Assembly (NCBI GenBank): GCA_038203035.1
Contig: JBBREI010000001.1
Span: 11,385 to 75,384, forward strand
Length of the DNA stretch: 64,000 nt
Direction: 5' to 3'
Source: Burkholderiales bacterium
GTDB taxonomy: Bacteria; Pseudomonadota; Gammaproteobacteria; Burkholderiales; Usitatibacteraceae
Positions within the stretch are counted from its first letter, which is position 1, and each line of letters starts with the position of its first letter. The notes under the pieces were generated by a model. The model saw only the letters and a list, made by a program, of their open reading frames with translations. It searched no databases and had not been told where the DNA came from. Below, piece after piece: positions 5,726 through 6,587 of this stretch. The position numbers and the translations under genes are program-made.

Positions 5726-6443
5726 TCAGAAACCTCGCGAAGACAAGAAGAAAGATGAAAAGGGGAAATCGAAGCCCGGGAATTTTACCGTAGCCGGGAG
5801 CCCAGCGCCCACCGGCAGGTCGTCGGAATCGCGCTTTCCCCTCGCGAAAGCCGCCTATTCGATGTCGGTGCACGATCCCAACCTGCTCCCGCCCCCCGGT
5901 GCGCCCGAAATCGCATTCGCGGGACGCTCGAATGCGGGCAAGTCCAGCGCGATCAATACCCTTGCGGGCCAGCGGCGCCTCGCGTTCGTGAGCAAGACGC
6001 CTGGAAGGACCCAGCTCATCAATTTCTTCACGCTTGGCAAAAACGCCTTCCTGGTCGACCTGCCGGGGTACGGCTATGCCGGGGTGCCGGGTGAGGTGCG
6101 GCGCCATTGGCAGACGCTGGTGGGTACCTACATATCGGAGCGCGCCTCGCTGGCCGCGGTGGTTGTGGTCATGGATTCCCGCCACCCGATGAAGGAGCTC
6201 GACCTCACGCTGCTGCAATGGCTGAAGACCGCGGGGCGGCACGCACACGTGCTGCTCACCAAGTCGGACAAGTTGTCCAAGCAGGCCGCCCAGCGCACGC
6301 TGGCCGCGGTTCGCAGGGAGCTCGCCGGCGTATATCCGGGCGCGAGCGTGCAGCTTTTCTCCAGCCTCAAGAGTGAGGGGATCGAGGAAGCCGCGAGGGT
6401 GTTATCACGCCTGGCGAGCAGAAAAAAACAAAGCCCCGCCTAA
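5694..6443 (+). CDS. engB: Ribosome-biogenesis GTPase EngB/YihA/YsxC (start uncertain: 5694, 5712 or 5862)
   Basis: [14 protein letters not shown] (G1), [19 protein letters not shown] (G3), LLTKSDKL (G4). Confidence 0.93.
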
Positions 6444-6531
6444 AGGGGAGTAAAGGCGGGGCCAAAAATGCCTTAATTGGGATTAAGGCCCCCGCTCAGG
6501 GAGGTGAAGCGGGGAAGGGTGCGTACCCTTC
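6421..6531 (-). ncRNA. Candidate small RNA antisense to the hemB upstream region (anti-hemB-like), four tandem hairpins ending in an intrinsic terminator
   Basis: Perfect stems 6514-6520/6525-6531, 6490-6496/6508-6514, 6470-6477/6482-6489 and 6433-6441/6454-6462; the last is followed on the minus strand by a U-rich tract (A-run 6422-6432). Confidence 0.65.
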
Positions 6532-6587
6532 ATAGGATAGGAGCCACCACGAATGCTAAAGTTCCCACCTTTTTTCGCGCCCGGAAC

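Follow-up and report, generated by a model that had tools for sequence, protein, structure and literature searches.

A small RNA of the anti-hemB/ncS04 family with a candidate sigma-E-type promoter in the engB-hemB spacer of a Burkholderiales bacterium

What is encoded in the short spacer between engB and hemB, on which strand, and what might its product do? The question is raised by a stretch of 64,000 nucleotides (hereafter the window, to which all positions refer) from a Burkholderiales bacterium of the family Usitatibacteraceae (assembly GCA_038203035.1, contig JBBREI010000001.1, positions 11,385 to 75,384 of the forward strand), where an earlier note made from the sequence had pointed to a candidate antisense small RNA (sRNA). 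The best explanation of the whole, which we hold with fair but not strong confidence, is that positions 6421-6531 of the minus strand are the gene of an sRNA of about 110 nt that has its own promoter and terminator and belongs to the anti-hemB/ncS04 family. Membership of that family is, taken by itself, nearly certain. The element is already catalogued and is not new, and any Rfam-based annotation would name it. The present work adds to the known family a conserved 5' hairpin that the Rfam model leaves out, an assignment of the strand, a promoter of RpoE type that Burkholderia has lost, and engB as an anchor in a wider range of bacteria.

On the minus strand, 6421-6531 consists of four consecutive hairpins and closes with a GC stem followed by a U-tract (Table 1). 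RNAfold returns exactly these four hairpins at a minimum free energy of -52.8 kcal/mol, compared with a mean of -37.4 for dinucleotide-shuffled sequences (z = -4.5; none of 200 shuffles was as stable), so that the earlier description of four hairpins, the last being a minus-strand terminator, is borne out. A terminator-scanning program called hairpin 3 rather than the true terminator, because the program limits the loop to 8 nt and the real loop has 12 nt. The comparison with Rfam that the earlier note had proposed matched the anti-hemB model over its full length. RF02837 (anti-hemB, "Burkholderia RNA 7"), a model of 81 positions and three hairpins, aligns through model positions 1-81 to 6425-6515 of the minus strand with 76 bits (E = 1.5e-17), well beyond its gathering score of 49.5 bits, which confirms the proposed relationship to anti-hemB in the minus orientation. 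All features of RF02837 are present: the conserved loop UCuCCUCCCUGa on its hairpin, one more hairpin, and a terminator stem-loop that runs into a U-tract. So is its layout, in which the RNA lies antisense to and upstream of hemB (ATG at 6588, plus strand).

Table 1. Coordinates of the small RNA, its predicted promoter, and the flanking genes in the window
Feature	Position	Strand	Basis or remark
-35 element GGAACTT	6559..6565	-	Sigma-E (RpoE/ECF02)-type; sequence and conservation
-10 element TCCTAT	6537..6542	-	N17 from the -35 element; ends 5 nt before the predicted start and 5' hairpin
Transcription start G (predicted)	6531	-	Promoter geometry and start of the 5' hairpin; agrees with the 105-nt ncS04 (PMC5688073)
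5' hairpin GAAGGGUACGCACCCUUC	6514..6531	-	RNAfold; outside the Rfam model
Hairpin 2	6490..6514	-	Stem 6514-6509 with 6495-6490; Rfam alignment and fold
Hairpin 2 loop UUCACCUCCCUGA	6496-6508	-	Anti-Shine-Dalgarno
Hairpin 3 GCCUUAAU-CCCA-AUUAAGGC	6470..6489	-	C-rich loop; Rfam alignment and fold
U-rich single-stranded linker AUUUUU	6464..6469	-	From sequence
Rho-independent terminator	6420..6463	-	10-bp GC stem, 6463-6454 with 6441-6432
Terminator loop UUACUCCCCUUU	6442-6453	-	12 nt
Terminator tail UUGUUUUUUUCU (U-tract)	6420-6431	-	Rfam alignment and fold
engB (yihA/ysxC)	5862..6443	+	TIGR03598, 223 bits; convergent with the RNA
hemB (porphobilinogen synthase)	6588..7595	+	NF006762, 499 bits, from residue 8; divergent from the RNA

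The only studied member of the family is ncS04 of Burkholderia cenocepacia J2315, which is anti-hemB and has a length of 105 nt, a mapped 5' end, and a 3' end confirmed by rapid amplification of cDNA ends; it gave a Northern signal and co-purified with Hfq (PMC4603805, PMC5688073). The window RNA shares with anti-hemB/ncS04 the same three 3' hairpins, the loop CCUCCCUGA, the terminator, the hemB/engB neighborhood and orientation, and, at about 110 nt, a similar length. It differs in having a terminator that overlaps the engB stop codon. The family is frequent among relatives, with the RNA found in 38 of 41 (36 of these above the cut-off), and the 3.68-Mb assembly of the source genome holds only one strong copy. 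Among same-order genomes, one that is 99% complete (G036) has neither an RpoE orthologue nor the sRNA, and another (G026) has RpoE and no sRNA. Apart from the ncS04 work, a 2026 preprint correlates the presence of anti-hemB with isolates from low salinity and reports nothing further on it.

Covariation was analyzed on homologues from 30 loci of relatives and 119 named loci taken from a pattern scan of GTDB genomes, with an alignment of 53 sequences and 31 base pairs. RNAalifold recovered all four helices from it. Pairing was possible in 96.4% of the alignment cells compared with 89.4% in shuffled alignments, and 16 pairs were changed on both sides compared with 7.0 in shuffles (none of 500 shuffles was as high), so that the compensatory changes for which the earlier note had proposed to search do exist. 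When the partners were slid by one to three columns as a control, pairing fell to 28-57%. Double changes affect five of the six pairs of the 5' hairpin, four of the eight of hairpin 3, and seven of the ten of the terminator stem. Hairpin 2 behaves differently: neither its stem nor its loop core varies in any of the 53 aligned homologues, many of them chosen with a pattern taken from this very hairpin, and it is conserved as sequence and therefore gives no evidence for or against its stem. The 5' hairpin, which the Rfam anti-hemB model does not contain, abuts hairpin 2 with at least 4 bp in 127 of 147 usable homologues, where it is built from more than 60 distinct stem sequences. Since it is both conserved and covarying, it is part of the family RNA, in agreement with the 105 nt of ncS04 rather than with the 81 positions of the model, and the earlier guess of extra stems holds for this hairpin.

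The same alignment speaks to the choice of strand. When Weinberg et al. predicted the hemB/anti-hemB motif in 2007, the strand was left undecided, as covariation was comparable on both (PMC1950547). The plus strand could instead be the functional one, serving hemB as a structured leader that regulates it in cis (that study's "hemB motif" option), and this strand folds well too (-51.5 kcal/mol, z = -3.0) and is spanned by the hemB leader in B. cenocepacia. Here, G·U cells, which pair on the sRNA strand only, outnumber A·C cells, which would pair on the opposite strand only, by 90 to 7. The terminator U-tract and the conserved promoter described below occur on the minus strand only, and the plus strand of the engB-hemB spacer has no terminator U-tract. 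Moreover, the element persists where hemB is absent, and ncS04 was seen as a discrete minus-sense transcript (PMC5688073). The G·U excess together with the minus-only U-tract and promoter settles the ambiguity for the sRNA orientation; judged by these sequence features selection acts on the minus strand, and a functional plus-strand leader is very improbable.

A promoter scan found no sigma-70-like promoter on either strand of the engB-hemB spacer. The consensus of RpoE/sigma-E (ECF02) promoters is GGAACTT-N16/17-TCnnA. The region directly upstream of the RNA, which reads GGGAACTTTAGCATTCGTGGTGGCTCCTATCCTATG on the minus strand, fits this consensus. A loose form of the motif lies at the right distance in 29 of 30 relatives and in 98 of 117 named loci, compared with a frequency of 2.3% in random windows taken from these loci, and in distant families of the class it was found in 25 of 28 testable loci against the same background of 2.3%. 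Overall, more than 80% of loci, drawn from more than 100 genera, retain the motif at a fixed distance from the 5' hairpin, with the -10 variants TCCTAT, TCTTAT, TCTGAT, and TCTCAT among relatives at the same spacing.

The source genome encodes an RpoE orthologue (TIGR02939, 324 bits). Its own gene is preceded by GGAACTATTTGCCGGTCACCCCCACTAAC, that is, GGAACTA-N17-CTAAC, with the spacing seen at the sRNA, and rpoE is preceded by GGAACT(A/C)TTT-N13-(G/A)TCT in 23 of 30 relatives, which is expected because the rpoE promoter is autoregulated. The strict consensus GGAACTT-N16/17-TCnnA has five sites genome-wide, a number near chance expectation; one lies before the sRNA and another (GGAACTTAAAGTAGTTTTCCTGCCTCCAA, contig C142, reverse-strand position 9214) upstream of rpoH (TIGR02392, 396 bits), the classical sigma-E-dependent heat-shock sigma gene. 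Transcription of the sRNA therefore probably depends on RpoE, as far as motif and conservation can tell. The earlier reading contained neither this promoter nor the lineage-specific status of the hemB neighbor. No link between anti-hemB and RpoE was found in the literature, including the papers that name anti-hemB and a search combining hemB, sRNA, and RpoE.

The neighborhood raises the question of whether the RNA acts on the genes beside it. The engB stop codon (TAA, 6441-6443) and the last seven codons lie inside the RNA terminator, with the TAA at its stem/loop boundary, as expected from the overlap with the engB 3' end that had been noticed earlier. The C-terminal engB codons (…RKKQSPA-stop, 6420-6443) are the complement of the sRNA U-tract and terminator stem, and the tail of the protein is therefore dictated by the terminator. 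The RNA is perfectly antisense to about the last 20 nt of engB and, because its gene fills the engB-hemB spacer, also to any hemB leader with an upstream start. At the other end of engB, the start codon is uncertain, as the open reading frame opens at 5694. For hemB, an alternative start at ATG 6553 was rejected despite a good AGGAG upstream, since this ATG is in another reading frame and arises only as the complement of TAGCAT in the promoter.

One alternative is that the RNA works chiefly in cis, as an antisense regulator of hemB and possibly also of the 3' end of engB. In that case it would pair over about 110 bp with the hemB leader or with an engB-hemB co-transcript, and hemB expression would be set by RNase III cleavage or transcriptional interference. 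From the predicted RNA start to the hemB ATG there are 57 nt, which the RNA's own promoter occupies, and the spacer offers no sigma-70-like promoter from which hemB could start. In B. cenocepacia J2315 the primary start of hemB is at -248, beyond ncS04 (PMC4603805 supplement), which means that both strands are transcribed there. Furthermore, hemB lies divergently upstream and engB convergently downstream, each within 400 nt, in 89 of 119 named loci.

A wider sample changes this picture. A covariance model of all four hairpins (R1) was run on 400 genomes drawn evenly from the class (321 genera), counting full-length matches at E <= 1e-3. It found the RNA in 127 of the 400 genomes and 104 of the 321 genera, and all but 3 of the 127 genomes are outside the window's order (the 3 being the window's own and two of the same order). 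Among the 29 best class-wide loci, engB is convergent within 180 nt in 22, and in at least 8 of 17 inspected loci the C-terminus of DNA polymerase I (polA) is encoded immediately upstream in the same direction. Rfam RF02837 gives 19 of 20 of these best loci 42-59 bits, 10 of them above the cut-off. The RNA thus occupies the polA-engB spacer outside Burkholderiales, and its conserved partner is the convergent engB and not hemB.

This distribution argues against hemB as the main target, as the RNA keeps its loops where polA and engB flank it and hemB is absent from the vicinity. Perfect antisense pairing, moreover, needs neither invariant loops nor covarying stems, and the hemB ribosome-binding site (RBS) is not G-rich. 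As a main function, cis-antisense control of hemB is accordingly unlikely. It need not be an exclusive alternative to action elsewhere: given that the 57-nt gap is filled by the RNA promoter and that no sigma-70-like promoter was seen, a secondary, Burkholderiales-specific cis-antisense effect on hemB is likely.

Two further observations concern the loci themselves. Nine distant genomes carry two or three sRNA genes in tandem, spaced by 200-650 nt, and these would be sibling sRNAs; the window copy is single. In addition, seven public loci from metagenome-assembled genomes, titled Enterobacteriaceae, Klebsiella pneumoniae, Bifidobacterium, Patescibacteria, and Bordetella parapertussis, show the typical hemB-sRNA-engB arrangement, and these records are probably mislabelled or mis-binned.

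If not mainly hemB, what might the RNA act on? The earlier note had described two C/U-rich loops; C-rich loops are indeed present, and there are three of them, CCUCCC in hairpin 2, CCC in hairpin 3, and CUCCCC in the terminator. It had also equated UCACCUCC in the hairpin 2 loop with the anti-Shine-Dalgarno tail of 16S rRNA. The 8-nt identity with the 16S 3' tail is real in the window (the assembly of the source genome has no 16S rRNA gene, so the tail compared is the universal one), but its A is not conserved, as most relatives read UCUCCUCC there. The functional core is therefore the invariant part of the loop, CCUCCCUGA. The loop of hairpin 3, CCC in the window, is CCCC or longer in distant relatives. 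As the loops stay invariant while the flanking genes change (hemB in Burkholderiales, polA elsewhere), they point to action in trans.

A mechanism can be proposed on this basis. Envelope stress would free RpoE, which would transcribe the RNA; the U-rich linker and the 3' U-tail would bind Hfq, as reported for ncS04; and the C-rich loops would pair with the G-rich Shine-Dalgarno regions of several mRNAs and thereby block translation initiation. The linker AUUUUU is a likely Hfq contact, judging from the usual architecture of sRNAs. We infer a multi-target translational repressor from the invariant C-rich loops and from precedent: ncS04 has itself been suggested to occlude RBSs, and repression of translation through C-rich loops that pair with G-rich RBS motifs has been demonstrated for sX13 of Xanthomonadaceae (PMC3771888). 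By analogy with these RNAs, RBS occlusion is a moderately probable mode of action.

Several results weigh against the proposed regulation. No target emerged; a crude scan with a home-made open reading frame caller and RNAduplex was dominated by wrong starts and GC-rich noise. Sites matching the loops tend to precede signal-peptide-like proteins: RBSs that match a 7-mer of loop 3 stand before signal-peptide-like proteins in 10 of 18 cases (56%, background 20%) in a strict set of starts, and loop-matching RBS sites do so in 34% compared with 5% in a loose set. The 16S-complementary 6-mers, however, are enriched before signal peptides as well (37%), and the enrichment is therefore not specific, because it extends to generic strong Shine-Dalgarno sites. 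On the side of transcription, the promoter was assigned by its motif and conservation, and the source genome encodes several other ECF-type sigma factors. Finally, ncS04 was the sole one of 14 sRNAs that remained unchanged in all seven conditions examined (PMC5688073, Table 2).

These last points leave room for a genuine sRNA that is not driven by RpoE, with the motif read by another ECF sigma factor or surviving as a relic and with expression constitutive or dependent on sigma-70, as is apparently the case in Burkholderia. In the loci from Burkholderia proper, Trinickia, and Caballeronia, the promoter is indeed of another kind than the sigma-E type of the window. They lack the GAAC -35 element and carry a conserved TGGTATATGAT, an extended -10-like sequence, where others have the -10 TC. 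Other promoters also occur in one family of the window's order (f18) and in a few further loci. Paraburkholderia and Pandoraea have kept GAAACTT-N17-TCATA, which overlaps the same TGGTATATCAT, and thus possess both signals. The promoter was probably replaced in the Burkholderia lineage, and this replacement may explain why ncS04 does not respond. With the motif retained so widely at a fixed distance from the 5' hairpin and matching the promoters before rpoE and rpoH in the source genome, transcription independent of RpoE is distinctly unlikely for the window RNA, and dependence on RpoE remains the preferred reading.

Other known sRNAs resemble the window RNA in part. One is sX13 (RF02232), in which a small 5' hairpin is followed by three more whose apical loops are C-rich; it targets G-rich RBS motifs, as proposed for the window RNA, and lies downstream of polA like the relatives of the window RNA outside its order (PMC3771888). 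It differs from ncS04 in being independent of Hfq. Membership of the window RNA in the sX13 family was rejected (RF02232 gives 25 bits and E = 0.04, with a cut-off of 50), and of the three CCCC loops that are typical of sX13, the window loops (CCUCCC, CCC, and CUCCCC) show a full CCCC run in one. In the reverse test, genuine sX13 loci, with RF02232 scores above 100 bits, are located correctly by R1 in position and strand but with only 12.7-20.3 bits, mostly via the terminator. Several genomes contain intermediates that are matched by both the R1/anti-hemB and the sX13 models. No clear sigma-E motif was found upstream of sX13. On these sequence comparisons, common descent with sX13 is plausible.

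ErsA of Pseudomonas aeruginosa depends on the envelope-stress sigma factor sigma-22/AlgU and is encoded in the polA-engB spacer beside engB (PMC8575079), which is the position of the class-wide relatives. It resembles the window RNA only in position and promoter type, and it is not among the Rfam matches of the window region at E <= 10. We take ErsA to act through a U-rich single-stranded region and not through C-rich loops. Spot 42 of Escherichia coli occupies the same polA-engB spacer. RybB, MicA, and MicL of enterobacteria follow the logic proposed here, as they are transcribed by sigma-E, associate with Hfq, and repress translation (of outer-membrane protein and lipoprotein mRNAs), but they are unrelated in sequence, structure, and locus.

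The toxic or double-hairpin sRNAs of RF02278 (ncS27, and S17 of Bordetella pertussis; PMC11722255) also occur in Betaproteobacteria and carry C/U-rich single-stranded sites complementary to RBSs. They differ in having two hairpins and sigma-A promoters, and RF02278 is not among the Rfam matches at E <= 10 for positions 5500-7500. S17, described as a "highly conserved sRNA" (PMC11722255), is not the same RNA, as it belongs to RF02278. A second C/U-rich sRNA candidate lies in the same genome outside the window (contig C30, 7861-7931, plus strand, equal to L002:1501-1571), with a single-stranded 5' UCUCCUCCUCC, two hairpins, and a U9 terminator; neither its anti-hemB score (31 bits) nor its RF02278 score (30 bits) reaches the threshold. 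Right beside it is a near-perfect hairpin of about 142 nt (L002:1612-1753) with a spurious match to the plant miRNA precursor MIR840 (54.9 bits, cut-off 150). Elsewhere in the window, Rfam matches AsdA, an antisense RNA of dnaA mRNA, at 40728-40808 on the plus strand with 54 bits (cut-off 52), which may reflect conserved dnaA-region sequence only.

Taken further, these comparisons permit a broader and more tentative idea, to which we give less than even weight. Anti-hemB could fill the place of an RpoE-dependent envelope-stress sRNA that has been missing in most Betaproteobacteria and in many other Gammaproteobacteria (in the GTDB sense), and the engB-convergent gene could be one ancient locus that gave rise to anti-hemB/ncS04, sX13, ErsA (by position and sigma factor), and possibly, after a change of promoter, Spot 42. 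For the family itself, the comparative evidence provides a concrete handle on the function of an RNA that was predicted in 2007. The conserved RpoE-type promoter predicts induction by envelope stress, and from the invariant anti-Shine-Dalgarno loop one would expect repression at ribosome-binding sites. The name anti-hemB is misleading, as the conserved partner is engB and not hemB, and the different promoter in Burkholderia suggests why the sole laboratory study saw no regulation. If the link to RpoE holds true, Betaproteobacteria would gain a counterpart of RybB, MicA, and ErsA.

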